DNA of 64,000 nucleotides, taken from the NCBI GenBank assembly GCA_027022365.1, contig JALVYU010000031.1, forward strand, positions 430,391-494,390, given 5' to 3'. Of this stretch, positions 1 to 55,699 are shown piece by piece. The DNA comes from Desulfurococcales archaeon. GTDB taxonomy: Archaea; Thermoproteota; Thermoprotei_A; Sulfolobales; Desulfurococcaceae. A program made the position numbers and the translations under genes. The notes beneath the pieces are model-generated. The model ran no database searches. It saw nothing but the letters and a program-made list of their open reading frames with translations, and was not told where the DNA came from. Each line of letters opens with the position of its first letter. Within the stretch, counting starts at the first letter, position 1.

Positions 1-500
1 TAAGCATTAAGGATATCCCGATAAGATATATACCAATACTCGATGCTCTAAGAAAGATCATTGGGGAATTAGAAGGGCTCGCAGAGATTGAATCGTTAAA
101 AGAGTTTACGAAGCAAATTGCTATACTGCTTGACAGTAAAGGATACTGGGAGAAGAAGCAGATCATTGTACATGAGGCATTCGATCTATTAGATATTGTT
201 GAGGAAATATATGAGAATGAAAAGACAACCGAGATCGATAGAGAATTACTCAGAAAGTACTGGAAGAAAAGGAAAGGTATAAAGGACGATAGGGAAGGAG
301 CGTCGGCGGAGTCAAGTCACGAGCTCGTTTCGCCCAGAAATTTCGCCGCTCATGCTGCTTTAAACCATAATGTGCTTGAGAAGATCAAGACGAGTGATGA
401 TGGAAAAGATATTGTTGAAATAGTTTACAACTACACTGATCTCAAGAAAACAATCAAGCAAATCGGCGATAAAACTAGTCTGATGAAATGTATATCTTGA
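1..500 (+). CDS. csx1: C-terminal part of a Csx1/Csm6-like CARF-HEPN ribonuclease (5'-truncated by the window edge)
   Basis: Frame 3 is open from base 3 to TGA at 498-500. It contains RNFAAHAAL (RNFAAH at 336-353), the RxxxxH HEPN motif typical of Csx1 C-termini, and lies next to CRISPR/CARF genes. Not in the ORF track because the start is outside the window. Confidence 0.7.
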   Translation, partial: SIKDIPIRYIPILDALRKIIGELEGLAEIESLKEFTKQIAILLDSKGYWEKKQIIVHEAFDLLDIVEEIYENEKTTEIDRELLRKYWKKRKGIKDDREGASAESSHELVSPRNFAAHAALNHNVLEKIKTSDDGKDIVEIVYNYTDLKKTIKQIGDKTSLMKCIS

Positions 501-671
501 TAATGGGATCCCTGCTGGAAGGAAATCAGTATACATGTTAGTAGACGATCTAGGGATGGGTGTCTTTATTGGTAAACAGTATCTCTAATACTGTATTTCA
601 ATTGGTGCCTCAGTGAGTTTGAGGAAGCTGTTCAACATCATTGATTGATGCTCTGTAAAAACATGTTTTTC

Positions 672-1505
672 TCACTGCTTCTCTATGCTTAGCAATGTTT
701 TTGCGAGCCTGACGGCTTCTGGTAGTGGTCTGCCGTTTATTGTTAGGCCCAGCCTATCGGTTACGGCCCATATCTCCTGGGGCAGCTTCTTCTCTGTGAG
801 TAGCAGGCTGAGGATCTTCTTCATGTTGTCTGTTAGCTCCAGCTCTATCACTGGTATTTCGATTATTCTTCTCATGTACTCGTGTATGTAGTACGCTGTA
901 TCTATTCCGAGGATGCTCGAGGCCAGGAGGAGGAACCCTGTCTCTGGCTTGAATCCCGCGGTGAGGTTTACTAGGACTCTGTCGTAGTCTCTGCTCTTGG
1001 CCACTCTCCAGGCGATCTTCTCGATGAGGTTCAGGATCCCTCTCCAGAAATCCCTGCCGAAGCCCTCGACCATGACCGCCTCGACGCCTCCGACCCGGTG
1101 GCCCTTCCCAAGGTACTCGTCCCCGAGGCCATGCCTCCCCAGGTACTCCATGATTATCCTCGACGCAAACATGCTCGTACCCGTATCGGTCGGGTACAGG
1201 ACGATATCGTGGATCACGCCGCTGTAACCCCTGCTTATCAGCAGGTCTACGTATCCCATGAAGGAGTTCAGCTCGGCGGAGGCCCGACGGGGATCAGACT
1301 GCACATACGCCAGGACATCCCTGAAAACACTGGACGATACACGGGCGTGCTCGCCCGCGTCCTTGTCCCAGAACGAGTCGGGCGCCGCGCGGGACCACTC
1401 CCTGAGCCTCTCCGCGTGCTTCCCGAGTATATCGTATTCAACAGCGTCTCGAGCCGCATTCCTAATAATACTGGTCCCAACCGTTGTCAAGTGGAGAAAC
1501 CTCAA
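672..1505 (-). CDS. CRISPR-associated CARF protein, APE2256/SSO1393 family (ring nuclease Crn1-like)
   Basis: Motifs HLTTVGTSII, LYPTDT, VNLTAGFKPE and YYIHE are typical of this family. The probable start is TTG at 1505 behind a GGTGGTGA RBS; the ORF-track extension to 1736 looks spurious. Confidence 0.75.
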   Translation of the reverse strand: MRFLHLTTVGTSIIRNAARDAVEYDILGKHAERLREWSRAAPDSFWDKDAGEHARVSSSVFRDVLAYVQSDPRRASAELNSFMGYVDLLISRGYSGVIHDIVLYPTDTGTSMFASRIIMEYLGRHGLGDEYLGKGHRVGGVEAVMVEGFGRDFWRGILNLIEKIAWRVAKSRDYDRVLVNLTAGFKPETGFLLLASSILGIDTAYYIHEYMRRIIEIPVIELELTDNMKKILSLLLTEKKLPQEIWAVTDRLGLTINGRPLPEAVRLAKTLLSIEKQ

Positions 1506-2209
1506 GAGATCACCACCAACCAGTAGTATTGTTCTAGTAGGAATAAAACATTGTCCGTCTCCCACAGGCCCACCCAGCCCCATATACCCTCTACGTGGAC
1601 GCTGATCCCCAGGGCGTCTCCAGGGATCTTGATCTTTTTCAATTATTGGATCTCTGGCGGATGTAAACCGGGGAGTTACCAGGCACCATAGCCCCCAAAC
1701 ACACAACCAGAACAAAAAAGACGAAATACAAATCATAAAATCACAGCTGAGCCCTCAAACCCTTCCAGAGAGAATATCTCCCATGATCGCGCCACAGCCA
1801 CATACACTCGTCAGGAACACCTATTCAGCAAAAACGAACACCAAGCCACAGATAAACACCAACATGAACGACAACAACGTTCCACAGCCTCCCCATAAAA
1901 ACCCAAGAGAAAAACTGGTTACCCCTCCCCATCGTTCACAAAACGTTCGTTTCCCCAGTTCATTTTAACTGTTCATTTACGCCGGGAGAACATTGAGGAA
2001 AAATAATGCTGGATACAGCTGAGCTGTATAAACAACCGGACACGAAACAATTCTTCACCCACACCCCGAGCCGTTCAAATACTCGTCCACAGCCCGAGAA
2101 ACAACTATTATAGGGGGCGTTCACGAACAACAGTTCACAAACAATAAATTCGCCCACGTTCACATTTTTACGAACACCTCATCTGTTTCCTCTAATCAAA
2201 TTTACAGAA

Positions 2210-2234
2210 GAATATACTGGAGAAAAATTGAAAG
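2210..2234 (+). repeat. Solitary CRISPR-repeat-like sequence GAATATACTGGAGAAAAATTGAAAG
   Basis: 25 nt, starts GAA, and its last 12 nt (AAAAATTGAAAG) are identical to the 3' end of the array 3/4 repeat. No second copy nearby. Confidence 0.4.
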
Positions 2235-2257
2235 AGAGCCCTGAAAGACCATATTAC

Positions 2258-2610
2258 CTCCAGTTTATTCTTGTTTGTCTCTCGGATAAACACCACCACG
2301 TACCCCTTGATCAATAATCCGGTGCTCAACCTCTTTCAGTTCTATTTGTTTGTTTCATACCCATGACTTTCAGTTTTCTTTGTTTGTATCGATCACGCTT
2401 TGAATACCTTTCTTACGGGCGTATTCCCAGAACTCATAGCTTTCAGTTATTTGTATTTGTTTCCCTTCAAATCCCGACTACTGGGCGAATAATCCCGAAT
2501 ACGAAGAGATAATCTTTCAGTTTTTTGTGTTTGTTTCTGGATGGTTCTCAATTAGCTTCTGGAACGAATACAAGTATATCATCATCCTTTCAGTTCTTTT
2601 TGTTTGTTTC
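2258..2610 (-). CRISPR. CRISPR mini-array 1: 6 degenerate 24-nt repeats (consensus GAAACAAACAnAnAnAACTGAAAG), family B
   Basis: Repeats start on + at 2258 (very degenerate), 2333, 2367, 2440, 2514 and 2587. Spacers are about 51, 10, 49, 50 and 49 nt. The leader is on the right, so transcription is leftward. Confidence 0.85.
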
Positions 2611-2772
2611 TGTTCTTGTTTGTTTATTTGGTTGTTTTAATATTTTATGTTTTGCTCTGGTGTTTTCCCCAACGATCCATTGGCCCGGTGAGAGCCACCA
2701 TAAACCGGTTGGTATAGATCAGCGATAAAGTGTTAAGCATAGGCTAACACAGAATATGGTGGGGGTTGTCTT
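2611..2772. promoter_or_regulatory. Leader of array 1 and divergent promoter/RBS of cas6 (inverted copy of 6266-6428)
   Basis: About 160 bp, reverse-complementary to 6266-6428, with exact blocks of 45 and 42 bp. Contains the BRE/TATA-like AAAGTGTTAAG and a GGTGGGGG RBS. Confidence 0.8.
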
Positions 2773-3667
2773 GGTTTTGTTTGGGGACTTGTTTGGTGGT
2801 AGGTGGTTGTTTGAGTCGGGTGTTTCCGGGTATTTTTTGCTGCGTGTTGTTGTTAGGGTTGTTTGTGATGGTGGCTGGGTGGTTCTGCCTCCTTTTACGG
2901 GGAAGGTTGTGAAGTCATTACTTATCCGTGGTTTTGGTGGGCTGGATAGTGTTTTTGGCGGTGTGTTTAACCCTAAGCCGATCCATGTCTCGCCCCTGCT
3001 TGTTGGTGGTAGGTGGTTGTGGAAGCGGGGCGGTGAGAGGGGGGTTCTCCGTGTCCGGTGCGGGTCTGAGGCGGTCTTCTATGTTGGGTGTACTGAAGAT
3101 GTTGCGGGGATGGTTTTTAGTGGTGTTGAGGGGCTGAGTGGTGCTGAGCTATTTAATGCCCGCTGGGAGCTCGTCTCCCTGGATATTGAGAGGTATGATC
3201 TCCCCTCGGAGGACCTGGGCATCGGGATCGATGGGCATGACAGGGTTGTCGTGGAGTTTAAGAGCCCCGCCATACTCGTCGATCCCTATAAGGCCTCGCC
3301 CAGCAACCCGAGGTTCCTGCCGCTTGCAGGGGTCTTGTTCTCGTACAATATAGGTGATCTGCTCCGTATGAGGAGGCGGGAGCATAGATGGGAGTCGAGG
3401 TTCTGGGCCGCTGTCGATATTGTCAATGCTGTCCTGCACGAGCATAGACGTATACTGGACAACATATATACCGTCACGTATAACTATGATGGCAGGATAG
3501 GCTACGGGGTCGGCGGCAGGGCGGTCTACTATATCGTTAAGAGGATTATAAGGGAGAAGCCCTGGGTCAAGGCGTTCCTGGAAAACATAATCGTGCATGC
3601 AAGGATCATGGGCGTAGGCTCGAGCAGGGCGAACGGATTCGGCCACGTATCTATAAGGCTAGAGTGA
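2756..3667 (+). CDS. cas6: CRISPR endoribonuclease Cas6 (paralog 1)
   Basis: Motifs FTGKVVKS, PKPIHVSPL, VEFKSP and the C-terminal G-rich loop GVGSSRANGFGHV. The start may be TTG at 2771. Confidence 0.9.
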   Translation: MVGVVLVLFGDLFGGRWLFESGVSGYFLLRVVVRVVCDGGWVVLPPFTGKVVKSLLIRGFGGLDSVFGGVFNPKPIHVSPLLVGGRWLWKRGGERGVLRVRCGSEAVFYVGCTEDVAGMVFSGVEGLSGAELFNARWELVSLDIERYDLPSEDLGIGIDGHDRVVVEFKSPAILVDPYKASPSNPRFLPLAGVLFSYNIGDLLRMRRREHRWESRFWAAVDIVNAVLHEHRRILDNIYTVTYNYDGRIGYGVGGRAVYYIVKRIIREKPWVKAFLENIIVHARIMGVGSSRANGFGHVSIRLE

Positions 3668-3685
3668 CAACCGCCTCATCACCGC

Positions 3686-4426
3686 CTACCCGGCCACGAG
3701 GCCCCTGGGTAATGGCACGTACTCGGCCCTGATCCTCCCCCTATAGCTGTACGTTATCTTGTACATGGGTGCTGCGCGGACGTAGCCTATGATGCTTTTC
3801 TCGCCTATGAAGGGATTGTTTCTCGTGACTAGGACGGCGCTGTAGTCTCTCACGTCTACCCCCATCTCCTTCATGTCGCCTATGTTTACCGGTATGGTTG
3901 AGTGGCCCTTATACAGTGGGCCCGCCTCTACGATCTTGTCTGGACGGATAATCCTTGCCCTGATTATCCCCCACCGCTTCTTACCGATCCTAATGTATCT
4001 CGGCAGGGGCTTTTGGGGGTCGTGTATGATTATGGTCTTGTACAGGGAGCCGGGCCCCACCGCGTAGTAGTGTACCTGCAGGGGGTGTACCAGCTTCGGC
4101 TTAGCCTTCTCTGGGATCGCCAGTGTCTCCGGCGTCGGCGACAGGAATATCCTTGTATAGGACACGTGGATCGGCTCCGCCGGGTAAACGTAGAAGCCTT
4201 CCCTGATGGCCTCTGAAACCACCCTGTAGCTCGGGGGAATGGTTCTCCCCATGATGGTCTCCGAGCTGTAGCCTAGGAACCCGTAGATCAGCGGGTAGTT
4301 GTGTATGAAGGGGTGCGTACGGATCATGGGGCCCGGGGACAGTGTTGATTCCTTTATGCTCTCCTGCATCTTGGAAAACACTAGTAGTCCGTGGACTTCG
4401 AGGTAGGCTATGCTTACCGTGCGCAT
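3686..4426 (-). CDS. cas5d: Type I-D Cas5 (Csc1)
   Basis: Motifs FIHNYPLIYGF, YVYPAEP and LPRYIRIGKKR are characteristic of Csc1. It lies directly downstream of the Csc2-like segment. Confidence 0.8.
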   Translation of the reverse strand: MRTVSIAYLEVHGLLVFSKMQESIKESTLSPGPMIRTHPFIHNYPLIYGFLGYSSETIMGRTIPPSYRVVSEAIREGFYVYPAEPIHVSYTRIFLSPTPETLAIPEKAKPKLVHPLQVHYYAVGPGSLYKTIIIHDPQKPLPRYIRIGKKRWGIIRARIIRPDKIVEAGPLYKGHSTIPVNIGDMKEMGVDVRDYSAVLVTRNNPFIGEKSIIGYVRAAPMYKITYSYRGRIRAEYVPLPRGLVAG

Positions 4427-4429
4427 CTC

Positions 4430-6262
4430 CTACTTCTTCCCCTTCTTCTTTCCTTCCCTGCCAGCCAGCTTTGCGAGCTCGTCATGCTTTGCCTTGGCGT
4501 CACTCCACGCCTCCCTGGCAATATTTTTGAGGTCGGCCTCTCTCCTCACCGTCTCTGCGATGCCGCTGCTTATACAGTATTTGGCGTACGGCGTGGCCTT
4601 CCCGATCTCCCTGATGTAGCCCTTATAGATCGTCAGTGCCTCCTCAGGGGTCTTCGGGGCGGAGGACAGTATTTTAAGGGCCGCCTCATAGCCGCTCCCC
4701 ACCTCGTAGGGAGCCGCTATCAGCCCAGCGATCTCAACTGCTACTCTGCCGAAGTGCGTCTGAACGGCGCCGAGGCGATCGATGGTGGCGAGGCTGTAGA
4801 GTACTAGTAGGAGCTCGTTCCACGTCAGGTTCTTCAGGGCGATCTTGCCGACGAACAGTACTCCGGGCTTCACAGCGCGGTCCTGGAGGAGCGCCTGCCC
4901 GGTCACGTGGAGCGCCTCGTCCACCGCGTTCCTCGTGAAGGTGAATGTAGCGTCTTCCTCCCTAACAACAGCGTAGTAGACGTCCCCCTCGACCCTGCTC
5001 TTCACATTATAGTCTCCGCCCTGGACGGCGAACCCGTAGATGAGGCAGGCCGGGCATCTCCCACAGTACCCGACGCCCTTGGATCCGCCTGTGACGTTTA
5101 CTATGCACTGCCACCCGCCGCCCAGCAGCTCCTCGAGAACCGCTGATGTCTCCAGCGTGTAGCTTATCCTGTCGAGCACCACGAGGGCTTGGGCCCCGGC
5201 TTTCTCGGCGTACTCTACTGCTTCCCGGCTGTGCAGCCTAACGTGTGTGGACATGAGCTTCTGCACGGTGTATATGTTGATCAGGCCCGGCCTCCCGGCC
5301 TCCACGGCGTCCCCCCTACCGTACCCGTAGAAGGTGATCCGGGCCGGGAGCTTGACGAGGTCTCCGCCGCCACTCCCGCTCTCCTCAACCTTGCCTACTA
5401 CGGGCACATCCAGTGCCTCAAGGTGCTTCTCGATGCCGGGTATCGGCGTCGCCGTGGAGAGTATTGTCAGCGAGCCGCTCTCCGCGAACAGCTTGACCAG
5501 TGCCAGGCTGGAAAGGTAGTCCAAGAGACCCCAGGAATGGTACTCGTCGAAGAAGACGATCGGCTTGCTGCCGAGCCGTAGATTAACCGTTCCCAGCCTG
5601 GCAAGCCTGTCCTTCAAGCCCGTGATTCGGGGCTCCACCCCCTCGAGAATACTGGATATATAGCGCGCCGTCCTCTCGTAGTCGCCGTAGACGCCGAGCA
5701 GGACGTAGTAAAAGAGATCAGGGGTGGCGAGCACGACGCTGTAGTCCGGGTCAATCCTCATCAGCTCACCGCTGATCCTTACGAGCATGTCGAGGTGCCC
5801 CAAACCCCTAAAACCACCAGTCTCGCCGAGCTCCCCCAGGATCCTCCCGCTGATACGGGCCAAGACGAGCTTCTCGCCGCCCGGCCCCACATACAGCCGG
5901 AAAACCCTGTCCCTCCAATCACCGAACACGCTCAAACCATATCCTAGAGCCCTCTCAACAATATTCCCGACACTCCTGAACTGGTCATCCAGCAACTCAT
6001 TACTAGGATAAAGACCTAGGCAGCCAAACCCCCTCAAGCCAGCCTCCCGGAAAACCTCATAGCCGAGGAGAAGACACAAAGACTTACCCGCACCAGTAGG
6101 AGCAGAAACAAGGACAACCCCAGGCCCAACACCACCAGAGACAAAACCACCTATAATGCTGAGAACACGCTCCTGAAAACCCCTAAGCCAAAAAGAACCA
6201 AACCTCTTACCGCTCTTACTAACAAAAACACCTCCAACAGACAAATCATGCACCAACACCAA
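4430..6262 (-). CDS. In-frame fusion of an N-terminal type I-D Cas3' helicase fragment (about 390 aa) and a C-terminal Cas7d/Csc2 fragment (about 215 aa)
   Basis: The N-terminal part has Walker A SAPTGAGKS, LYPSNELLDDQ, ATPD, FFDEYH and STATP. The C-terminal part has CGRCPACLIYGFA..KSRV, FTRNAVDE and RLGAVQTHFGRV, typical of Csc2. Helicase motifs V/VI are absent. Confidence 0.8.
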   Translation of the reverse strand: MVLVHDLSVGGVFVSKSGKRFGSFWLRGFQERVLSIIGGFVSGGVGPGVVLVSAPTGAGKSLCLLLGYEVFREAGLRGFGCLGLYPSNELLDDQFRSVGNIVERALGYGLSVFGDWRDRVFRLYVGPGGEKLVLARISGRILGELGETGGFRGLGHLDMLVRISGELMRIDPDYSVVLATPDLFYYVLLGVYGDYERTARYISSILEGVEPRITGLKDRLARLGTVNLRLGSKPIVFFDEYHSWGLLDYLSSLALVKLFAESGSLTILSTATPIPGIEKHLEALDVPVVGKVEESGSGGGDLVKLPARITFYGYGRGDAVEAGRPGLINIYTVQKLMSTHVRLHSREAVEYAEKAGAQALVVLDRISYTLETSAVLEELLGGGWQCIVNVTGGSKGVGYCGRCPACLIYGFAVQGGDYNVKSRVEGDVYYAVVREEDATFTFTRNAVDEALHVTGQALLQDRAVKPGVLFVGKIALKNLTWNELLLVLYSLATIDRLGAVQTHFGRVAVEIAGLIAAPYEVGSGYEAALKILSSAPKTPEEALTIYKGYIREIGKATPYAKYCISSGIAETVRREADLKNIAREAWSDAKAKHDELAKLAGREGKKKGKK

Positions 6263-6265
6263 GAC

Positions 6266-6428
6266 AAGACAACCCCCACCTTATTCTCTGTTAATTATTG
6301 CTTAACACTTTATCGCTGATCTATACCAACCGGTTTATGGATGCTCTCATTGGGCCAGTGGATCGTTGGTGGGAGTACCCAGAGCAAAACATAAAATATT
6401 AAAACAACCAAATAAACAAACAAAAACG
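6266..6428. promoter_or_regulatory. Leader of array 2 and divergent promoter/RBS of the cas3'-cas7 fusion
   Basis: Inverted copy of 2611-2772, with an A/C-rich stretch next to the first repeat. Confidence 0.8.
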
Positions 6429-6675
6429 GTTACAAACAGATAGAACTGAAAGTTTATCCGTTATCCCCTTGATCTCCTTATCTATTTTTCCTATCTCTAC
6501 TGTTACAAACAGATAGAACTGAAAGTCATTATATCGCTCTTGCTCTTCAGCAGCGCCTTCAGCTCGTCCCTCATAGAAACAAACAGATAGAACTGAAAGC
6601 GTCTACGGCATGAGCATATGGGAGACCCCGGAGCACGAGACCCTCTACACGGATACAAACAGATAAAACTGAAAG
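6429..6675 (+). CRISPR. CRISPR mini-array 2: 4 repeats G(TT/AA/AT)ACAAACAGATA(G/A)AACTGAAAG, family B
   Basis: Repeats at 6429, 6502, 6576 and 6652, with spacers of 49, 50 and 52 nt. A further spacer-like 50-nt segment follows with no terminal repeat. Confidence 0.92.
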
Positions 6676-26014: not shown

Positions 26015-26830
26015 GAAACAATAAACAAAAATTGAAAGGCCGAGCAGTCCGTTCGGCAAGAACGTTAAGAGCGACTTCGAAACAATAAACAAAAATTGAA
26101 AGGCTTGTCGCCCAGAGGCATAGCCGCCAATGTAACGATGGTGCGAAACAATAAACAAAAATTGAAAGGATTAATATTATAGACATTCCAGCATTCTGAA
26201 CAACGATAAGAAACAATAAACAAAAATTGAAAGACTATGAATCCAGAGAGTAGGGCTAGGGCTATGAACCCGTAGAAACAATAAACAAAAATTGAAAGCT
26301 ACTATTGTTCTCCTTTCCCTTATGCTTCTCTCTATTAGGTTTGAAACAATAAACAAAAATTGAAAGTCACATTGATATGTTGTGTGTTCGTAGTAGCTGT
26401 CGTAATCAGAAACAATAAACAAAAATTGAAAGATAATAACAAGAGACTTACTCACAGGTTTTACTACAATGTACGGATGAAACAATAAACAAAAATTGAA
26501 AGTTCCTAGCTATGTGTTCCAGAAGAGCGACCACCCTCCAGCGAAACAATAAACAAAAATTGAAAGCAATCCAAAAGAGCTAGTAATACAACTATGGTAC
26601 AACTATAAGGAAACAATAAACAAAAATTGAAAGGCCTTAGTATTGTACCTACAGGGTCTGAATCGGCTTCCTGAAACAATAAACAAAAATTGAAAGGTAG
26701 TATATCGTTAGGGTCTCGTCGCGGTTCAAGTAGAACGGAAACAATAAACAAAAATTGAAAGTATAGCTGTTAGCAGGGTCGCTATTATGTCTCCATCACT
26801 AGCAGTGAAACAATAGACAAAAATTGAAAA
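26015..26830 (+). CRISPR. CRISPR array 3: 13 repeats GAAACAATAAACAAAAATTGAAAG (family A), 12 spacers of 39-46 nt
   Basis: Exact 24-nt repeats from 26015 to 26738, and a degenerate terminal repeat at 26807. Confidence 0.98.
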
Positions 26831-27766: not shown

Positions 27767-28429
27767 CTAGGCTCGGTAGATTTTTAGTAATGTTTTCGCC
27801 TTGGTTGTGAGTATGTATTTATTGTCCTTTTTTTCAACCAGGTGTTTTTCTTCGAGCTTCTTCACGGTTTTCCATATTGTTGTTTTTGGCTTTTCCAGTA
27901 TCTTCGACAGCTTTGTAAGGGTTATGCCCGGGTTTTCTTGGAGTTTTTCAAGTATTTCTAGCTCTAGTTTTGTCGGTGTTTCGCATATGGGTATGTTTTT
28001 TGGATCTATTTCTATTGATTTGTCTCTTGCCTCGATGTCTATTCTGATATCGATATCTATGTTTTCCTGCTTGATGAGTAATGCAGCAGTATATGCCTCT
28101 ATAACTAATGCTCTCAAACCTCCCCCGAGGCTTATCTTGAACTTGCTGTTTCCTCTCAGTATTTCTTTTTTAAAGATGTCCATGATCTGGGAAACAGCGG
28201 TCCAGAAGTCTTCTACGTCTACTCTGTGTAATAGTATGTTTTCCTCCTTGATCCCTGCGAGTCCCGCTATATTTTTTATTTCCTGGACGGCTTTCCTTGT
28301 CCTCTCATCAATATCCCATGATGGTACCAGTAATACTATTTTTGAGACGCCGCCCATCCCCATGGCTAATAGACTGCGTATAACGTGTCTTTCGTCAAAT
28401 CCTAGTGTTGCCAGAAGGATAGTGGTCAT
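27767..28429 (-). CDS. csa3: Csa3 CARF-wHTH transcriptional regulator
   Basis: ATLGFDE and SLGGGLRAL motifs plus a C-terminal wHTH; divergent from the I-A operon. Confidence 0.92.
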   Translation of the reverse strand: MTTILLATLGFDERHVIRSLLAMGMGGVSKIVLLVPSWDIDERTRKAVQEIKNIAGLAGIKEENILLHRVDVEDFWTAVSQIMDIFKKEILRGNSKFKISLGGGLRALVIEAYTAALLIKQENIDIDIRIDIEARDKSIEIDPKNIPICETPTKLELEILEKLQENPGITLTKLSKILEKPKTTIWKTVKKLEEKHLVEKKDNKYILTTKAKTLLKIYRA

Positions 28430-28601
28430 TTTATAAGTCACCCCTATATCTTGTTGTTAGGTGTTTAGTTTATTAATTGTTTCTCTTTATGAGAACACTT
28501 CTTATTTCTGTTCCTATATTTGGGAATAATTCTGAAACCTAAGAAACGCATAAGATTTATATACCTTTATATCTAGAAAAAGTAAATAGAGGGAGTAGAA
28601 A

Positions 28602-29051
28602 ATGTCTGGCGATGGGTATGAAAATATTGTGAAAATCATCAAGTACTTCATTGAGACGAAGCGATACGGGCCTGTAGACAGAATGGCTATGGCCATGGGT
28701 CCTGAAGCAGTAGAAATAGCGCTTTATGACATGCTCCGAACTATAAGTAGCTTATATGGTAGGAGCATTGTTGTGAGGATGAGGTCAGAAAAAGATGGTA
28801 AAGAGTTTACAGTGAGGTGCTGTGAATATGATGAGGATAAGAGGCTCGGATACGGTATTTATGGCGATGTAGTCGAGGTACTAGAGGGACAAGGCGAACT
28901 AAAAGGTAAGATCCAGTGTATGCCGTGCCCGCGTCCCCCTAGAGAAGACGAGGTAAAGGGTTTCCTTGCAAAAGTGAGAGAAGATCCGTCCTACGCGAGA
29001 AGACTTGTATTAGAGGCTTTTTCAATCCACGTGAAGGGAGAGGGTGAATAA
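28602..29051 (+). CDS. csa5: Type I-A small subunit Csa5 (Cas11)
   Basis: YGPVDRMAMA..ALYDMLR pattern; first gene before cas7. Confidence 0.8.
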   Translation: MSGDGYENIVKIIKYFIETKRYGPVDRMAMAMGPEAVEIALYDMLRTISSLYGRSIVVRMRSEKDGKEFTVRCCEYDEDKRLGYGIYGDVVEVLEGQGELKGKIQCMPCPRPPREDEVKGFLAKVREDPSYARRLVLEAFSIHVKGEGE

Positions 29052-29054
29052 AGA

Positions 29055-30077
29055 ATGGTTTATACGAGCATCTCGGCCCGGATCCTATTAAATATTGAAG
29101 CGCTAAATATGACTGAAAGCGCCGGCAACTATGTGAAGCATAGAAGAGCACCAGTAGTCATTCCAACGAGTAATGGGTATATTCTCAGATACGTTCCAGT
29201 GATCAGTGGTGAGAGCATAGCTCACGCTTACCAGGAAATACTCGCTAAGATAGCTGAGGAAACAGGCCTACCAGTATGTAGTCTATGTAGGCAGGGCGTA
29301 TTCCTCAAACACACAGATAAAAACGTGTTCAAAAGAACAGGTATCCCAGCACCCGACTTCAAGAAACCGGAGAGCGTCGAGGAGACAATCGTTAAGCACT
29401 GCGTAGTCGAGGACGTAGGCGGCTTCCTAAACACTGACGCCGCTTTAAAGAGGACGAGCAGATTCTACGCAGGATACATGATCCCAGCACTAGACTCTAT
29501 CAAGACAAGTGCTGCAGAGGCACAATTCCATGTCAGATACGATCCCCTGTCGATCCAGACACAAGCAATATATAACATAGAAGCTGGAAGCGCATTATAC
29601 GTATTAACGCTCGGGCTAGACATAGACGGAATAGGTGTTTCAAGCATAGCTTTAGAAAACAGTAAGCCGAAACCCCTAGTATCCCCTGAGGAGAGATCTA
29701 AGAGGATTGAGGCAGCATTCAAAGCAATGCATCTACTAGTAACGCAAATGCTCTTCGGAGCAAAAAGAACAAGGTTCATGCCTAACTGGAAGATAATGAG
29801 CCTAGCAATACTCACTACGCATCCGCTACCCCTGAATGTCCGGCCAGCACATACGAGCAAATACATTGAGGAGACAATAGAATCAGTGAATCATGCCGTA
29901 GAACTGCTAGGTAAGGGGGCATCAAAGATAGAGGAGAAAGCACTCCTAGCATACTATTCGGCGGAAGAAAAACCAGTAGTCGGAGAGTCCAGTGTAAGCA
30001 TATACGAGGCCAGGACACCCGACGAAGCATTCAACAAATCCTATGAGTACATACAAGAACTGTTGGGGATGAAGTAA
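29055..30077 (+). CDS. cas7: Type I-A Cas7 (Csa2)
   Basis: EALNMTESAGNYVKHRRAP, VPVISGESIAHAYQ, EDVGGFL, KRTS and FGAKRTRF. Confidence 0.95.
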   Translation: MVYTSISARILLNIEALNMTESAGNYVKHRRAPVVIPTSNGYILRYVPVISGESIAHAYQEILAKIAEETGLPVCSLCRQGVFLKHTDKNVFKRTGIPAPDFKKPESVEETIVKHCVVEDVGGFLNTDAALKRTSRFYAGYMIPALDSIKTSAAEAQFHVRYDPLSIQTQAIYNIEAGSALYVLTLGLDIDGIGVSSIALENSKPKPLVSPEERSKRIEAAFKAMHLLVTQMLFGAKRTRFMPNWKIMSLAILTTHPLPLNVRPAHTSKYIEETIESVNHAVELLGKGASKIEEKALLAYYSAEEKPVVGESSVSIYEARTPDEAFNKSYEYIQELLGMK

Positions 30078-30079
30078 GG

Positions 30080-30871
30080 TTGAAGAGCATCTTATTAGTA
30101 GATATAGTTTTTTCATGGGGCCACATGATTAGGCCACCATATCAAAGCGGGGGAGGACAGGCCCTACCCTACCCTCCCCCAACAACCCTGATAGGAGCCT
30201 TGGCAGCCCCGTATCTAAGACTGAGAGAGCCAGTGGAGATCATTTACCATGATAAGAAAGCGTACAGTCCAGCCGCCAAGTTACTAGATATTGTGAGCTA
30301 CGCCGTTATGGGCTATCCTAAACCATGCGTAACCGAGATAATTGATATTAACAAATACTACTCCTACGCTTATCTTAGACCCAAATATAAAAAGTATGAA
30401 AGATTCTGGTCAGCCGCTATAGGCACGGGTAAAATATACTCACCATCAAACGCTGTAATCGCATACATAGTCGAGCAGGAATACGGAGAAGAACTAGCCA
30501 AGGCAGCATGGGGGATCACGAGGATCGGTAGCAAGGAAGGACTGGTATCAGTAAGGAGAGTAAAACTGGTAAAACAACCAGCAGTAATCGAAGAACAAAA
30601 GACCGTCAGTACAATTTTCCCAACACCCCTAAACATAGTAGAGCCTAGGGAAAACTGCAGGATCATCTATTTCTGGAAAATTATGAGGGAAGCATATACT
30701 TCGTACATGCCGAAGGAATACGAAGAATATCTCGACAAATACGTTGTCCCAGAATTCACTAGCAGAGTCTACGGTGGATCTATGAAGGTAAAGCCGCTAG
30801 AAAACGCCGTAGTAGTCGAAACACCATATTCTCCACTCATACTTCCCAAGGAAAAACTAGGTATAAGGTGA
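30080..30871 (+). CDS. cas5a: Type I-A Cas5
   Basis: YPPPTTLIGALA and ITRIGSKEGLVSV. Confidence 0.93.
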   Translation: MKSILLVDIVFSWGHMIRPPYQSGGGQALPYPPPTTLIGALAAPYLRLREPVEIIYHDKKAYSPAAKLLDIVSYAVMGYPKPCVTEIIDINKYYSYAYLRPKYKKYERFWSAAIGTGKIYSPSNAVIAYIVEQEYGEELAKAAWGITRIGSKEGLVSVRRVKLVKQPAVIEEQKTVSTIFPTPLNIVEPRENCRIIYFWKIMREAYTSYMPKEYEEYLDKYVVPEFTSRVYGGSMKVKPLENAVVVETPYSPLILPKEKLGIR

Positions 30872-32025
30872 TACGATATATGAGTGGTCATCTATGCATA
30901 GAACTATACCCGCCCGGCACACTCGGCAGGATCTTCATAGACTTATCACTCAACTATATGGATAAATCCCTTTACAAACTAAGAGACAATACTATATGTA
31001 TAAATGATCCAGTCTTGTTCGCCCAAGAAATGGAGGGGTTGCTTGAACAGTTCTATGTTAAAAGAGAAAAATGTTTCTACCTTACAGGTAATGATAACAA
31101 AAAAATTGTTGAGGTTCTAGGATCATTCTATAGTAAAGACGATCTGGCAACAATCATAAGATTTGTCACAAAATCTCTCATAAACGGCGGATACAGCAAT
31201 GTAGCTAAGAAAACAACAGCACCAGCCATGGCAAGGATAGAGTTTTTCGAACATTCAAAACCAGGCTATATAGCCCGGATTTCCGATAAACACAAGGAGC
31301 ACCCATACAAACGCATGAACGTATTATCGCTTGCCCTAACAATCTTAGGCGGCTGTATAGCCTATGTGACTCAAAGCGGGAAAAAGTTCATGGTTTATTT
31401 TGTTCCACTATATTACATCGAACCAATACTAATAAAGAAAATCAAGGGGAAAATAGCGGAATACTATAACTCCCCACCCAGTATTCTCGCCTACATAGCA
31501 GTAAAATATGTAGCAGAGCTCGGAGTAATCAGCGGATCACCGCTTGGTTTCTTAATAACGATAGATAGGTCGGGAAACAGGCCAATTCTCGTACGTAGTG
31601 AGCCATTAGCTAGTGAAGGATTAGAGAAAATTATACCAAATCTATCCAAAACTTCAAGAGAAATTATTGATGCAATACTTGATCTGCTGAAAATATATTA
31701 TGACGAGCTTCCAAAAAAGAGAAAGACAGCTAAATTCAAGAGAATTGCAGAATTTGTAGCCCCACTCATAACCATAGTGTTGGATATTTATAGGGCGTCA
31801 AGAGGATCTGGGGAGGCATTATATGACTGTATAAGGACTATAGCCCTTGTCAGGGACAGTATTATCAGCTCATTAGAGAAAGGTGGTAAGAATACTCCTT
31901 GGAGAAGACTATACTTCATGCTGAAAGACAAAGTCGATCATCCGGTGGGAGCGCTAAATATTCTCATAAGAGATCTATCGAATATAATTAAGCTGGAGGA
32001 ATGGAGGGGTATATACCAGTTTTGA
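30868..32025 (+). CDS. cas8a: Type I-A large subunit Cas8a (CsaX/Cas8a2-like)
   Basis: Position between cas5a and cas3', size, and the N-terminal LYPPG. Assignment is mainly syntenic. Confidence 0.7.
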   Translation: MIRYMSGHLCIELYPPGTLGRIFIDLSLNYMDKSLYKLRDNTICINDPVLFAQEMEGLLEQFYVKREKCFYLTGNDNKKIVEVLGSFYSKDDLATIIRFVTKSLINGGYSNVAKKTTAPAMARIEFFEHSKPGYIARISDKHKEHPYKRMNVLSLALTILGGCIAYVTQSGKKFMVYFVPLYYIEPILIKKIKGKIAEYYNSPPSILAYIAVKYVAELGVISGSPLGFLITIDRSGNRPILVRSEPLASEGLEKIIPNLSKTSREIIDAILDLLKIYYDELPKKRKTAKFKRIAEFVAPLITIVLDIYRASRGSGEALYDCIRTIALVRDSIISSLEKGGKNTPWRRLYFMLKDKVDHPVGALNILIRDLSNIIKLEEWRGIYQF

Positions 32026-33800
32026 GGAAACTTAACGATTTTCTCATTGAGACATATGAGAAACACTATAGTAGGGTGAATAAGCCACTTATAACCATAT
32101 ATGAAGCGCCAACCGGATATGGTAAATCATCAGTATTCCCATTTATAGCATATAAAATACGCAGTTCAGGAGTATTCTACGGGTACATACACGTATTACC
32201 CATGAGAAGCATAATCAGGAGCCTATACACAGATCTTTTGGAAGGAAATAAATATCCATTTAACATGATTGAAGACGTGAAAAACAATGTGGGGTATCAA
32301 GCAAGCGGTATGACTCTATCAGGAAAGGACCCATTCTACACAAAACTATATAATATAACGACGATCGATAGCTTCATGCTAAACATGTTAAAGCTATCTA
32401 TCGGCGAGCCCAACACTTACTACAAGCACTATGAAGCAAGCAGGTCAATGATATTTACCTCAATGATAACACTTGATGAAGCCCACTTATACGGAGGCGA
32501 TCCAGGGGCGCCAGAAGAGAAACTATATACTAGTTTCACATCTCTAGTCGGTGTCCTCCCCTACCTAAACACGCCCATATCAATAATCTCCGCGACAATC
32601 CCCATAAGCCTGGGAAACGCCATCTATAGGACAATACTGGCTTATACTAGGTCGAAAAACGGCGTGGCGCTGTGGATAAAGTATGGGGATAAGATCAGAG
32701 TAAACGGGAAAGTCATTGGTGAAGCGGTAGATAGAGAATTCGATCAAAGAGTGGAGTCCACTCGATGGAAAACAGAGATCCTATCAATAAGGTTCAATAA
32801 GCTCGCAAAAGAAATAAATGACAAAGCCGAGACAGGGAGGAAAATACTAGTTATAACCAATAAGCCCGTCAGAGCTGTGAATATTTACGAGCACTTAGCA
32901 TCGATGGATCTGGATCCTGTTCTGGTTCATGGAAGACTGAAGTACTCGGAAAGAGAATCTATGGAGAAAAGAATACGTGAGGCAAATGTAGTTGTTGCTA
33001 CCCAGGTAGTAGAGGCCGGAATAGACGTAAGCTTCGACACTATCTACACTGATCCTGCTCCTCCCACAAGCCTTATTCAAAGAATCGGGAGAATAAACAG
33101 GGAACTAAGAGACAACATAACCGGCCAAGTATTTATCATCAACGATGGTGAGGACAGCTATAAAAATATATATGATCCTGAAATAGTGGTGAATACGCTG
33201 AAACTGATCAAGGAGTACGGGGATAATATAAACTGGAGACTACCTAGGGGAAGAGATTCAAGCGACATCATAGGCTACTATGATTTGATCGAGAAAATCT
33301 ATCAGGGATTAACACCAGTAATCGATACAGGGCTTCTCCATGCACTCAAAGAAATAATTCTCTCAGCAAGAATAGGCTGGAGTCAAACGAGGGAGCTAAT
33401 GTATAAATCATGTATGAAAAACACAGGTATTATTAGGAACAGTGTTTTGATACCCGTTTTTCCAGTGGATATCACAGATCAACACTTAGTAAATGATATT
33501 ACTATTGAAGAACTATTTGTTGAAGCGGTACCAGTAAGCTTAGCTTGGCTTATAATTAGGGCGAACACTCTTCTTTCAAGGAAATCATTCATACTATATA
33601 TTGTTTTTGACGATAACGGTGAGCCTTATCCTCGCTTTGAAACAGCTCCAAGAGATCCTGCGGAACTAAAGAAGATAATATGTGGAAGTCTATGTGGATA
33701 CAGGGTTCATAGGAACTTATCCCGCGGCAACGGCTTCTTTTCCGGCATAGTAGTCGAACCTAGGCTCTACAAGCCCTGGAAAGGATTGCTGGTTGACTAG
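32001..33800 (+). CDS. cas3: Cas3' SF2 helicase
   Basis: APTGYGKS, LDEAH, SAT, ATQVVEAGIDV and QRIGRINR. Confidence 0.95.
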   Translation: MEGYIPVLRKLNDFLIETYEKHYSRVNKPLITIYEAPTGYGKSSVFPFIAYKIRSSGVFYGYIHVLPMRSIIRSLYTDLLEGNKYPFNMIEDVKNNVGYQASGMTLSGKDPFYTKLYNITTIDSFMLNMLKLSIGEPNTYYKHYEASRSMIFTSMITLDEAHLYGGDPGAPEEKLYTSFTSLVGVLPYLNTPISIISATIPISLGNAIYRTILAYTRSKNGVALWIKYGDKIRVNGKVIGEAVDREFDQRVESTRWKTEILSIRFNKLAKEINDKAETGRKILVITNKPVRAVNIYEHLASMDLDPVLVHGRLKYSERESMEKRIREANVVVATQVVEAGIDVSFDTIYTDPAPPTSLIQRIGRINRELRDNITGQVFIINDGEDSYKNIYDPEIVVNTLKLIKEYGDNINWRLPRGRDSSDIIGYYDLIEKIYQGLTPVIDTGLLHALKEIILSARIGWSQTRELMYKSCMKNTGIIRNSVLIPVFPVDITDQHLVNDITIEELFVEAVPVSLAWLIIRANTLLSRKSFILYIVFDDNGEPYPRFETAPRDPAELKKIICGSLCGYRVHRNLSRGNGFFSGIVVEPRLYKPWKGLLVD

Positions 33801-33827
33801 GATTGTTAGCCGCTGGGGGTCGAAACA

Positions 33828-34676
33828 ATGTATTTCCATGCATACATCGATAAGGATGGCAGGAATTATAGTTTAATAGGGCACTCCATAGACACTCTTC
33901 TCGTCGCTTTAAAGACAAATATCAACAAGAGACTATATACTGTCACTTGCAGGATAATAGAAGGAGATAACCATAGAGAGGTTATTCACTCCTACCTTCT
34001 CCTACCGTTTTTACTACATGACATAGGGAAAATAATGATCATGTACCAAGAGAGACCCGCCAAATGGAATTATGGATACGCGTTCCACGAAATTGTTGGC
34101 GGCATACTAATGTATAAGATCAGCGAGCAAATCCTCGAGGATGATGTAGCGGGAGTAGATTATCAAATGCTGAGGTATCTCTTGGTGGAATCCGTTAAGA
34201 GACACCATTATTCAATGAACCGTGGATTAAACGAGTTAATTGAAGCTATGAACAGAGGACTCTTTAAATTCGTGAACGGCGTTTATAATGTTGTGAAAAG
34301 AAGTGATCTGGAAAAATATATTCTAGGCATAAAAACATGCTTAGAGAGATACTCTGAGATGGTGCCCCGCCAACTAAATAACATACTAGATAATATTATT
34401 GAAAAAGCTCTACCAAACATGCGTGACACTCTTTTTAGCCTCTATACAGCTAGAACGTTGGAGCAAAAAATCAAGAAAATAGAGGATTACCTGCGTAGCA
34501 AGAATGTTAATGAAGCCTTCATATACAACGCCGTATTGACAGGATTAATCTCATTAGCTGATTACACGGCAGCATCAATAGAGAGAAGCAATAAACTAAG
34601 AGGATATGCTTCAAAATTTTACTCCAAGAGCGAAATAAAGGAGATTAATGCTATTATACCGGTCGAGTGCAGATAA
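33828..34676 (+). CDS. cas3'': Cas3'' HD nuclease
   Basis: LIGHS, LLHDIGK, FHE, RHH and LADY. Confidence 0.93.
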   Translation: MYFHAYIDKDGRNYSLIGHSIDTLLVALKTNINKRLYTVTCRIIEGDNHREVIHSYLLLPFLLHDIGKIMIMYQERPAKWNYGYAFHEIVGGILMYKISEQILEDDVAGVDYQMLRYLLVESVKRHHYSMNRGLNELIEAMNRGLFKFVNGVYNVVKRSDLEKYILGIKTCLERYSEMVPRQLNNILDNIIEKALPNMRDTLFSLYTARTLEQKIKKIEDYLRSKNVNEAFIYNAVLTGLISLADYTAASIERSNKLRGYASKFYSKSEIKEINAIIPVECR

Positions 34677-34688
34677 TACCTCGTCTAT

Positions 34689-35627
34689 ATGGGGCTGTAT
34701 ATGATGAGCAACAATATTCATTTCTTCCGTGTAGGCTTGTATATTGAGGGTTTTAGGGGTGTTTTGTTCACTGGTAAGCTTGTTAAGACCATTATTATCC
34801 GGGTGTTGCCTGAGCTCGGCGGGTTCTTCCAGCCTTCTCGGTCGGGTTATCCGAAGCTTATCCATGTTTCGCCGCTCTACACCCGTGTCGGTGGGAGGAT
34901 TAGGTGTGTTTACAGCAGTATTGACTGCAGGGGCGATACGGCCAGGTGCGGTGGTAGGCCCTCGCAAGTGGTTCTGAATGGGGATTACTGGTTCTATATT
35001 GGTTTCTCCGAGAAGCTGTTGAGCCACGAGAAATTCCTGGAGGCGGTGATGGGTCTCGACGACTGCTTCGTCTTCATGGATCAGAGGGTGTGCGCCGTGC
35101 TTAGCGAGCTAGAGTACATCAATATGAGGGAGGCAATACTCGATACCGCGAGGAGGGTACTGGGGAGCGGTAAGCTCAAGATAGTGTTCTCCTCCCCCAC
35201 AATGCTGAGGGATCCCTTCAAGCGGACGAAACACAAGTCACTCATACCCACAGTATTCAACATATTCTCGACACCGCTCTACCTCATGCTGCACAACACG
35301 GGCTCCTACAGCCTCAGGAAATACAGGAGGCAGCTCCTGATACTCCACAAGATCTTCAACGAGCCGTACACCACCCTTAAAACCGTCAAGCTAAAATGGG
35401 TCGTCTACAAGCACAGGCCGGAGCCGACAATAACCGGGTACATGAACCTCTTCATCAACCAGGACTACCTACAGTACTACGGGAGATACATAGACATGGA
35501 GAAATACCTGGGAGAAATACTAACATACATGGCAGCACTAGGCGTAGGAGTAGGAAGAGCAACGGGATTCGGCCACGTAACCGTAGAGCCCGGACAGAAA
35601 AAGGAGAACGCCGCAGAGGGGAAATAA
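34689..35627 (+). CDS. cas6: CRISPR endoribonuclease Cas6 (paralog 2)
   Basis: FTGKLVKT, PKLIHVSPL, FSSPT and GVGVGRATGFGHV. Confidence 0.9.
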   Translation: MGLYMMSNNIHFFRVGLYIEGFRGVLFTGKLVKTIIIRVLPELGGFFQPSRSGYPKLIHVSPLYTRVGGRIRCVYSSIDCRGDTARCGGRPSQVVLNGDYWFYIGFSEKLLSHEKFLEAVMGLDDCFVFMDQRVCAVLSELEYINMREAILDTARRVLGSGKLKIVFSSPTMLRDPFKRTKHKSLIPTVFNIFSTPLYLMLHNTGSYSLRKYRRQLLILHKIFNEPYTTLKTVKLKWVVYKHRPEPTITGYMNLFINQDYLQYYGRYIDMEKYLGEILTYMAALGVGVGRATGFGHVTVEPGQKKENAAEGK

Positions 35628-45709: not shown

Positions 45710-46644
45710 CCCATAACGAGCCCGATAAGCGGTATCACGGATGCGAGTATCAGAGGCTTAAACGCCAGGTCAACCCTGTACCTGGGGTATAGGGCCTCTA
45801 TGACGGAGTAGACGCTCATCGTGATGAGGAGGAACAGGGTGAAAACGCCTAGGACAAGCACTGATAGCAGTGGCCCCGAGACAAGGGATCGAAGCACCGC
45901 CGCCACAGGCGATACAAGCACCAGCGACACGGGTAGCGATAAGAGTATGTATCTCTTGAGGAGCAGGGCGTAGAGGAACAGCCCGTAGTACCTCCCGCTG
46001 AACTCTAGGTAGGGCCCACCGAGCACCTCCGTCTCGGCCTCGCCCATATCGAACGGGGTGTAGGCGGACTCGATATACGCTAGTATGAAGAGGGATGCTG
46101 ACAGGAAGAGAGTGCTTATCCTCAGGTAGTTCCCGGGGAAGCCGTACAGCACCGCGAGGCCGTAGAGGTTCAGCGTCTTCATCTTATACGCTATGCCGAC
46201 GATCGTGAACGCGATGAAGACCTCGAACACCGTCACGGTCAGCGCCTCCCTAGCCGATCCGGCGTTTGAGTACGGGTTCGGCAGCGCTAGTCCTAGCAGG
46301 ACGACGAGCACGGAAACGAATAGCAGCGCGTACAACAGCGTGATGGCGTCAAACACTGTGCTGAACCCTGGGACGTAGGGTATGGGCACCGCCGCCGATA
46401 GTACTAGCATGGATACGAACACTATGTATGGTGTAACGATCATGAACATGTTCTTGAAGGGCAGAACCGGCTGCAGGCTGAATAGCTTCGATAGATCATA
46501 TATGGTCTGCAGCAGCGGCGGCCCGATCCTCCTCTGGACCTTGGCCCTGATCTTGCGTCTCAACCCATCGAGCACCGGGGCCATGAAGGCCCCGAGCAGT
46601 ATCAGGACGATCACCCAGACCGTTCTGAGCATGCACTCGTCCAC
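45694..46644 (-). CDS. Hydrogenase membrane subunit (NuoH/HycD-like)
   Basis: QRRIGPP..Q..YD..KL and PFDMGEAETE. Confidence 0.92.
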   Translation of the reverse strand: MDECMLRTVWVIVLILLGAFMAPVLDGLRRKIRAKVQRRIGPPLLQTIYDLSKLFSLQPVLPFKNMFMIVTPYIVFVSMLVLSAAVPIPYVPGFSTVFDAITLLYALLFVSVLVVLLGLALPNPYSNAGSAREALTVTVFEVFIAFTIVGIAYKMKTLNLYGLAVLYGFPGNYLRISTLFLSASLFILAYIESAYTPFDMGEAETEVLGGPYLEFSGRYYGLFLYALLLKRYILLSLPVSLVLVSPVAAVLRSLVSGPLLSVLVLGVFTLFLLITMSVYSVIEALYPRYRVDLAFKPLILASVIPLIGLVMGWLGW

Positions 46645-46648
46645 GGCT

Positions 46649-48679: not shown

Positions 48680-48681
48680 GA

Positions 48682-50043: not shown

Positions 50044-50046
50044 GTC

Positions 50047-51516: not shown

Positions 51517-51534
51517 GGATTTAGGGAAAAAAGG

Positions 51535-54002: not shown

Positions 54003-54122
54003 ACCAACAGCACCTTGGATCAAGTGATGCTGTTTGCTCGTTATGCCTTTATCGAGTGGTTTTAAATTAAAGAGCCCGTGATTCACTGTTTATAGGGGCG
54101 GTTGCCTGATCCGTTAAAACGG

Positions 54123-55694: not shown

Positions 55695-55699
55695 CTCGA

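Follow-up and report, generated by a model that had tools for sequence, protein, structure and literature searches.

An open reading frame (ORF) that joins parts of two genes of a CRISPR-Cas system of type I-D, cas3' and csc2 (cas7d), was analysed in the genome of a Desulfurococcales archaeon. The window is a stretch of 64,000 nucleotides (nt), positions 430,391 to 494,390 of contig JALVYU010000031.1 in GenBank assembly GCA_027022365.1, and the ORF lies on its reverse strand at 4430-6262 as a single stop-free frame of 610 codons with a TTG start. It adjoins the genes csc1 (cas5d) and cas6 and two small CRISPR arrays. A preliminary description, made from the DNA letters alone, had taken the ORF for a Cas3'-Cas7d fusion and considered whether it marks a decaying locus, a misassembly or a repurposed guide system.

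Structure of the fusion ORF

In the encoded protein, amino acids (aa) 1-381 represent a type I-D Cas3' helicase by its N-terminal half, and aa 382-610 represent Csc2/Cas7d by its C-terminal two thirds. On the reverse strand, the cas3' remnant extends over 5135-6262 (aa 1-376), which is the RecA1-like half as compared with the intact helicase P0007 and with P0008, and the csc2 remnant over 4430-5118 (residues ~106-334 of Csc2). Between them lies the deletion junction at 5119-5134, a 16-nt microhomology which reads GAGGAGCTGCTGGGCG in gene orientation and is translated as EELLG. The switch between the halves, at aa 381/382, thus falls within 5119-5134, which is 25-70 nt further right than the position near 5065-5095 that was proposed at first.

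The helicase half contains SAPTGAGKS (aa 53-61), DEYH (aa 239-242) and STAT (aa 269-272), which we take to be motifs I (Walker A), II (DExH) and III of the RecA1 domain of superfamily 2 (SF2) helicases. All three RecA1 motifs are thus present, and re-reading of the translation reproduced the stop-free 610-aa frame with the helicase motifs and the Csc2 sequence quoted in the preliminary description. Hidden Markov model (HMM) profiles recognized this half poorly: the type I-D Cas3' profile TIGR03158 matched aa 48-103 alone with 30.9 bits, under its cut-off of 69.1, and Pfam DEAD reached 22.5 bits, under the cut-off of 26. The identity of the helicase half is therefore derived from homologues such as P0007 rather than from these sub-threshold profiles. 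The Csc2 half was clearly recognized by Pfam Csc2 (aa 386-528, profile positions 88-228 of 298, E 4.5e-35) and by TIGR03157 (aa 381-531, profile positions 75-225 of 282, 110.4 bits with a cut-off of 38). It retains the zinc-cysteine motif CGRCPACLIYGF at aa 400-411 and the C-terminal part of the protein. The profile check suggested earlier therefore succeeded for Csc2, and also for Csc1 (see below), and failed for Cas3'.

The true start of the cas3' remnant is likely the TTG at 6244-6242 (codon 7), the point where P0007 begins. An AlphaFold model of the fusion had a mean predicted local distance difference test score (pLDDT) of 62, with aa 296-399 below 50. We gave it little weight, as low confidence is inseparable here from the mixed helicase and Csc2 input alignment.

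Intact parent genes and the parts that are missing

A query of 5.8 billion clustered proteins with the fusion gave ten matches: one identical 610-aa protein, which is the cluster of the window itself, five helicases of 718-833 aa that match just the first 23-64% of the fusion, and four Csc2 proteins of 335-362 aa that match just its last third. The intact Cas3' P0007 (718 aa) differs from aa 7-381 of the fusion in 11 of 375 residues, after which the sequences part, and the 744-aa helicase P0008 is 56% identical to the cas3' remnant. A search with the C-terminal 229 residues led to the intact Csc2 P0019 (334 aa), which differs from aa 382-610 in 10 of 229 residues. At the join, P0007 reads SAVLEEMLGADKVAVVTGM, P0019 reads DNDPDVKKHVEELLGGEWQCIV and the fusion reads SAVLEELLGGGWQCIV.

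On the helicase side, residues ~376-718 of P0007 are gone. They include ITGNKAIELGID and QRIGRIGRR, which align with the Pfam Helicase_C region of the distant protein P0164 and are presumably the SF2 motifs V and VI, arginine finger included. Both lie at residues 396-436 of P0007, within the deleted part. A stand-alone Cas3' has both RecA-like domains (motifs I-VI); here aa 1-381 of ~718 are left.

On the Cas7 side, Csc2 residues 1 to ~105 are gone and with them 13 of the 52 columns that are invariant in an alignment of 19 Csc2 sequences. Although the family score is passed, the TIGR03157 match covers profile positions 75-225 of 282 alone, and the csc2 remnant is not a full-length Csc2/Cas7d. 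In the model of P0019 (pLDDT 84.9), the deleted part consists of a helix (10-20), a strand (33-42), hairpins (46-69) and two further helices (71-92 and 94-104). The solved structure of Thermofilum pendens Csc2 (4TXD) aligns to P0019 residues 22-334 (E 3.7e-27). The sections on the fold in the 4TXD paper describe a core of β1-α1-β2-β3-α2-β4 with the hairpin H1 between β1 and α1, place β1, H1 and the conserved α1 before insertion domain 2, and report a contact of α1 with the glycine-rich loop (PMC4615900). By their order, we assign the strand 33-42 and the helix 71-92 of the P0019 model to β1 and α1. The csc2 remnant would accordingly be devoid of two of the six elements of the RNA recognition motif (RRM)-like core, which is incomplete in this model.

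Breakpoint and alleles

The stretch occurs in 13 public sequencing runs from five studies, none of them recorded as RNA, and four of these runs (X1, X3, X4 and X10), from four studies, were examined. Their contigs were built on 31-letter words. The junction check that had been recommended was done on these assembled contigs. Run X1 contains a contig of 3376 nt (stated depth 162) that bridges 5119-5134 and has no difference from the window over 3600-6101; the run shows no loose end at 5119 or 5134 and no alternative form.

Undeleted alleles were found in other runs. A contig of X4 matches the window over 3889-5134 with 12 differences in 1246 nt and then continues with 248 nt of other sequence, which, read by hand, encodes DNDPDVKKHV; in P0019, these Csc2 residues precede EELLG. 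A second X4 contig matches 5119-6328 (18 differences in 1210 nt) and diverges before 5119, where it encodes ADKVAIVTGM, also read by hand; this is the continuation of Cas3', for which P0007 has GADKVAVVTGM. The same loose ends occur in X3 at 5119 (cas3' side) and in X10 at 5134 (csc2 side), and X3 seems to contain both the deleted and the intact form. The contigs of the undeleted allele are ~1-1.5% off the window in their DNA. Because they diverge at 5119 in one direction and at 5134 in the other, both parent genes contain 5119-5134 in phase: as read from these contigs, the 16 nt coding for EELLG are common to intact cas3' and csc2 and have the same codon phase in both. When two direct repeats agree in phase, a deletion between them gives an in-frame product without any selection. 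The openness of the fused frame is therefore a by-product of repeat phase and provides no evidence of selection.

The deleted form is not restricted to this assembly. A separate ENA contig of 31,863 nt encodes the identical 610-aa protein. A 20,044-nt NCBI contig of a non-identical assembly encodes P0018 (418 aa), a member of the same cluster with three substitutions, whose residues 362-418 correspond to the +2 frame of the fusion ORF across the junction. That genome thus shares the deletion and shows, in addition, a frameshift near codon 359; a genuine frameshift would mean that decay of the fused frame has already gone further.

Gene order in relatives and the probable loss of cas10d

The source genome (1.74 Mb) is a metagenome-type assembly of 44 contigs rated 99.97% complete, and tblastn detected no other piece of Cas3', Csc2 or Cas10d anywhere in it. 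With the 936-aa Cas10d of relative G176 and the C-terminal part of that of G006 as queries, there were 0 matches at E<=1e-3, and nothing lies between the cas3' and csc2 fragments. A Cas10d with an N-terminal HD nuclease domain is thus absent, as stated in the preliminary description. The absence of a nuclease, which was claimed together with it, holds true for this module only, since genes for the Cas3'' HD nuclease of a type I-A system and for a type III Cas10 lie within 30 kb of it.

The intervening gene that was removed was probably cas10d, to judge from gene order. A large HD-domain gene (cas10d) directly precedes csc2 in all three relatives with readable DNA: G176 (936 aa), the distant locus L027 (963 aa, PADLOC Cas10_Id) and G006, where the C-terminal 376 aa stand at a contig start and are 39% identical to those of G176. 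NCBIfam, Pfam and PADLOC miss the Cas10d proteins of the nearest relatives except for the HD domain, so the label in G176 and G006 is based on the HD match, size, position and mutual similarity. Of the in-frame deletion proposed earlier, the loss of the helicase C-terminus and of the Cas7 N-terminus could thus be mapped to the 16-nt microhomology, and the loss of cas10d is deduced from the three relatives.

The order cas3', cas10d, csc2, csc1, considered canonical at first, proved to be one of several. Archaeal type I-D loci vary: cas3' is divergent from cas1-cas4-cas10d-csc2 in G176, the order in L027 is cas10d-csc2-csc1-cas3'-cas6, and the place of cas3' differs among the loci of G176, G006 and L027. 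A search of genome contigs with P0007 for related loci found no relative, and the same search of metagenome contigs found one locus, L027, which is 29% identical. A word-based search with the Cas10d of a relative gave three proteins, none of them from a sister strain.

Genes and arrays flanking the fusion

The csc1/cas5d gene (3686-4426, reverse strand) is intact. It matched TIGR03159 with 46.7 bits (cut-off 41.4; profile positions 10-212 of 225) and PADLOC Cas5d with 92.1 bits, and it is 62% identical to the csc1 of G006 over 246 aa, so a Csc1/Cas5d subunit is encoded. Convergent with it, cas6 occupies 2756-3667 on the forward strand (PADLOC Cas6 PDLC01127, 97.9 bits over aa 47-302; Pfam matches are weak). 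Both genes were thus correctly named in the preliminary description. The Cas6 profile matches start at aa 42-47, and the true start of cas6 is probably downstream of 2797.

The two arrays attributed to the module were also found. Mini-array 1 (2333-2610, reverse strand) has five 24-nt repeats, all different, with spacers of 10, 49, 50 and 49 nt and its leader on the right (2611-2755, reverse strand). In mini-array 2 (6429-6675, forward strand), which is preceded by its leader at 6263-6428 (forward strand), three spacers of 49-52 nt separate four repeats of 24 nt, GTTACAAACAGATAGAACTGAAAG and variants of it. The arrays flank fusion, csc1 and cas6, and both leaders face the cas genes. The leaders are inverted copies of each other (2587-2660 and 6379-6452, 92%; 2669-2797 and 6241-6369, 83%), and the inverted repeat overlaps the cas6 ORF by 42 nt and the fusion ORF by 22 nt. 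Because of these overlaps, the longest-ORF starts of cas6 and of the fusion are probably wrong. From the sequence, the pairing of a Cas6 with an adjacent CRISPR array thus appears to be preserved.

Two families of repeats occur in the genome. One, GAAACAATAAACAAAAATTGAAAG, makes up the large arrays, and the other, GTTACAAACAGATAGAACTGAAAG, is found in four small arrays: the two that flank the module and two on contig C26, at 141148-141308 and 189121-189348. The C26 arrays have three and four repeats and lie far from any type I-D gene; together the four small arrays hold about a dozen spacers. The six spacers of the flanking arrays that are at least 20 nt long had no second match longer than 19 nt in the genome (the spacers of the C26 arrays were outside this test), and among these flanking spacers we saw no sign of self-targeting as a driver of the loss.

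Distribution of the fusion and selection on its parts

An exhaustive HMMER search of 1.84 billion representative proteins gave 139 matches, and the only one that spans both halves belongs to the cluster of the window itself, as does the one among the ten matches from the 5.8 billion clustered proteins. The best stretch of P0076 crosses the junction coordinates, but this protein is a plain Csc2. None of the five same-genus genomes (69-99% complete) contained a match to the fusion. G006, the one family relative with a match, has separate cas3' and csc2 genes, and 23 of 300 other genomes sampled from the order had a Cas3'-like match, in frames of 404-764 aa. The fusion architecture thus did not appear in several diverged lineages, and the related genomes that were to be searched for it yielded nothing beyond the cluster of the window. 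A literature search for Cas3-Cas7 or Cas7d-Cas3-type fusions found none (supplementary files were outside its scope).

Other rearranged proteins were seen among the matches. The distant P0164 (518 aa) combines the N-terminal part of Csc2 (residues 3-194) with a helicase C-terminal domain, which is the opposite type of chimera. In P0173 (883 aa), a full Csc2 (557-842) follows an N-terminal part of 556 aa of other sequence. P0024 (187 aa) shows ~90% identity over its last 122 residues and looks like another broken csc2, from a related strain.

In comparison with the intact allele of X4, the cas3' remnant has nine non-synonymous and six synonymous differences, with a ratio of non-synonymous to synonymous rates (pN/pS) of 0.51. 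The csc2 remnant has one and three (pN/pS ~0.10) and csc1 two and three (pN/pS ~0.21). These values are based on tiny counts (15, 4 and 5 differences), much of the divergence may predate the deletion, and one difference per X4 contig, up to three in one of them, is left out. At seven of the nine non-synonymous sites in cas3', it is the fused allele that deviates, with X4 and P0007 in agreement, and these seven include the proline at position 338, which is kept in all five intact sequences compared. We lean towards the view that the differences point to relaxed constraint on the helicase remnant.

Origin and fate of the locus

In our opinion, the fusion ORF is, with a probability of about 90%, a non-functional chimeric remnant of one recent deletion within a type I-D operon. 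The deletion is still polymorphic, and the ORF is neither a misassembly nor part of a repurposed system. The deletion is recent because the intact allele differs by just ~1-1.5% in DNA and because deleted and undeleted alleles coexist in hydrothermal-vent populations. The earlier alternative of a decaying locus or a misassembly is thereby decided in favour of decay, as the X1 contig, the ENA contig and the NCBI assembly all carry the junction.

The ancestor would have had cas3' and csc2 on the same strand, and both genes would have contained the EELLG-encoding GAGGAGCTGCTGGGCG with identical codon phase. Either recombination or slippage during replication between the direct 16-nt copies would then have removed everything between them: cas3' codons ~376-718 with the RecA2 domain and helicase motifs V and VI; most likely cas10d, for the large subunit with its HD nuclease and for the small subunit; and csc2 codons 1 to ~105 with the RRM-core elements β1 (a strand), H1 (a hairpin) and α1 (a helix). 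The product would be one open frame, presumably transcribed from the former cas3' promoter. Type I-D interference would be gone with the large subunit, the nuclease, a working helicase and the Cas7 backbone. The cas6 gene and the four small arrays may still work, and their CRISPR RNAs (crRNAs) could feed the adjacent type III-A system or the type I-A system 22 kb away; alternatively, the I-D-linked cas6 and the small arrays may themselves be on the way out. On the simplest account, I-D interference is dead and the host continues to rely on I-A and III-A.

Several observations weigh against this interpretation. The X3 junction contig (4953-5158) extends 24 letters past the microhomology on the cas3' side, which is less than the 31 letters required, and read support for the junction from an independent study comes mainly from X1. 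The frameshift of P0018 might stem from an error in the assembly of that genome. The exact size and content of the deletion are inferred. The 610-codon frame is open and has kept its own upstream region, so the protein could be made. Finally, the low pN/pS values of the csc2 remnant and csc1 give no apparent signature of free decay.

It is also conceivable, albeit unlikely, that the fusion is inert and that the loss of type I-D interference was selected, as an escape from self-targeting or from the cost of a third system. X1 shows the deleted allele alone at a stated depth of 162, with no loose end indicative of the intact form; the deletion abolished nuclease and helicase functions but left cas6 in place; and two other complete systems make I-D dispensable. 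On the other hand, the six flanking spacers that were tested do not point to the genome itself, contigs drop rare variants, so that fixation in X1 stays unproven, and neutral loss accounts for the same data.

The repurposed system of the preliminary description would be a nuclease-free crRNA-guided complex of the RecA1-Cas7d fusion, Csc1 and Cas6 with its own two arrays, serving for example in binding or regulation. The open frame, the intact csc1 and cas6 genes, the leader-bearing arrays, the few non-synonymous differences of the csc2 remnant and csc1 from the intact allele, and the retained zinc-cysteine cluster, glycine-rich loop region and C-terminal helical domain of Csc2 fit this proposal. 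We nevertheless consider it very improbable. No selection is needed to explain the frame, which results from the phase of the 16-nt microhomology. Core elements are missing from both halves, namely helicase motifs V and VI on one side and β1, α1 and 13 of 52 invariant columns on the other, and the large and small subunits that organise the I-D Cascade are absent from the genome. Among the 5.8 billion and 1.84 billion proteins searched, the fusion occurs in one cluster (at least 90% identity), one of whose three members is frameshifted, and intact alleles are ~99% identical in DNA. Array 1 is degenerate, with five of five repeats different and one spacer of 10 nt. In the cas3' remnant, non-synonymous differences outnumber synonymous ones (nine to six), the fused allele is the deviating one at seven of the nine and proline 338 is changed. 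The pLDDT of 62 of the fusion model is weak evidence in the same direction.

Even less credible is that the chimeric protein is produced and has been co-opted. In that case its RecA1 ATP-binding domain, linked to a Cas7d fragment with the zinc module and the C-terminal helical domain, would still interact with Csc1 and with crRNA processed by Cas6. If this were true, it could act as a decoy or regulator, for instance by titrating the crRNAs of the small arrays or by modulating the neighbouring III-A system, and it would be a very young neofunctionalised Cas fusion. An assembly artefact, in which two 16-nt repeats collapsed and the DNA between them was skipped, can practically be dismissed: although the junction lies exactly on a short repeat common to both parent genes and the genome is a metagenome-type assembly, the X1 contig crosses the junction without differences or loose ends, 16 nt is shorter than the 31-letter words underlying those contigs, two other assemblies carry the junction (one with three substitutions and a frameshift), and a genome rated 99.97% complete contains the missing gene parts at no other place.

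As a deletion remnant, the locus offers a clean, datable case of CRISPR-Cas module loss in the wild and carries little weight as a new system. A chimeric frame may be open and match the HMMs of two Cas families well without thereby giving evidence that the fusion was designed. The coexistence of intact and deleted alleles in vent populations that also have I-A and III-A fits a redundancy-driven turnover of defence modules.

Other CRISPR systems and genomic context

A complete type III-A module (csm2, csm3, csm4, csm5, a 969-aa cas10 and csx1) lies just upstream of the window, at 422200-430890 of contig C31 of the source genome G000 (L022 8215-16390), and extends into window positions 3-500. 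This end, on the forward strand, is the 3' end of csx1 (CARF-HEPN), the last gene of the module (ORF L022 15392-16390; PADLOC CARF9--CARF_HEPN, E 3.8e-126, and Csx1, E 4.6e-41); the part within the window gives a weak match to TIGR01897 Csx1. It is followed on the reverse strand, at 672-1736, by a gene for a ring-nuclease-like CARF protein of the Cas_APE2256/CARF7 type (PF09651, E 8.6e-29; TIGR02619, 90.1 bits; PADLOC CARF7, E 2.7e-58).

The type I-A module (27767-35627) comprises csa3, csa5/cas11a, cas7a, cas5a, genes for a Cas3' helicase and a Cas3'' HD nuclease and a second cas6, and has its own array of 13 repeats at 26015-26818. A 385-aa ORF (30868-32025) without a Pfam or PADLOC match sits where Cas8a is expected.

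An array of 25 repeats of the main family (62283-63887) runs to the contig end, and a 236-aa ORF inside it (63291-63998) is probably not a gene. Contig C1 (5354 nt) carries, at 540-4190, ~60 copies of a GC-rich 29-nt GTTATCCCCACACGCGTGGGGGTGAACCG-like repeat with a period of 61 nt. This repeat is unlike the other repeats of the genome, and C1 probably represents foreign DNA of bacterial type that was binned with the rest of the assembly. A gene cluster on the reverse strand (43982-55727) codes for a 620-aa CO dehydrogenase of the Prismane/CooS family, for a ferredoxin resembling CooF and for a membrane-bound [NiFe] hydrogenase of the Mrp/complex-I type, a gene content that suggests CO-dependent hydrogen production.

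Comparison with known systems

Type I-D systems, which have been studied in Synechocystis and Sulfolobus islandicus (PDB 7SBA/7SBB; PMC9123187, PMC7544194, PMC7689449), consist of Cas3', Cas10d, Csc2/Cas7d, Csc1/Cas5d and Cas6. The present module resembles them in that its Cas3', Csc2 and Csc1 sequences belong to these families and in that cas6 and leader-bearing arrays adjoin. It differs by the absence of Cas10d, of the second RecA domain of Cas3' and of the first ~105 residues of Csc2, and by having the fragments in one frame. Judged from its genes, it fails three of the five defining features of type I-D (Cas10d, a complete Cas3' and a complete Cas7d) and cannot be a working type I-D system. 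In comparison with T. pendens Csc2 (4TXD; Hrle et al. 2014, PMC4615900), as far as the structural description in that paper extends, the fusion keeps the zinc-binding cysteines and the C-terminal helical domain and is devoid of αA/αB, β1, hairpin H1 and the conserved α1. The breakpoint maps beside a loop that is disordered in 4TXD (Gln134-Gly147; PMC4615900).

A further likeness is to nuclease-free derivatives of type I systems such as the Tn7-like CRISPR-associated transposons, which also have no Cas3 nuclease, carry Cas6, Cas5 and Cas7 genes and have short arrays. Those transposons possess full-length Cas7, Cas5 and a large subunit, are found in many lineages and use a transposase as the new effector. 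Here, in contrast, Cas7 has a truncated core, a new partner is absent and the occurrence is limited to one strain cluster. The likeness is only superficial.

A further parallel is the loss of cas genes in natural or self-targeting populations, where a deletion in the cas operon ends interference and the arrays remain. No substantive difference separates the present case from such deletions, of which it is one more instance. Deletion remnants in cas operons are already known, and this one comes with its exact breakpoint and with both alleles present in nature.

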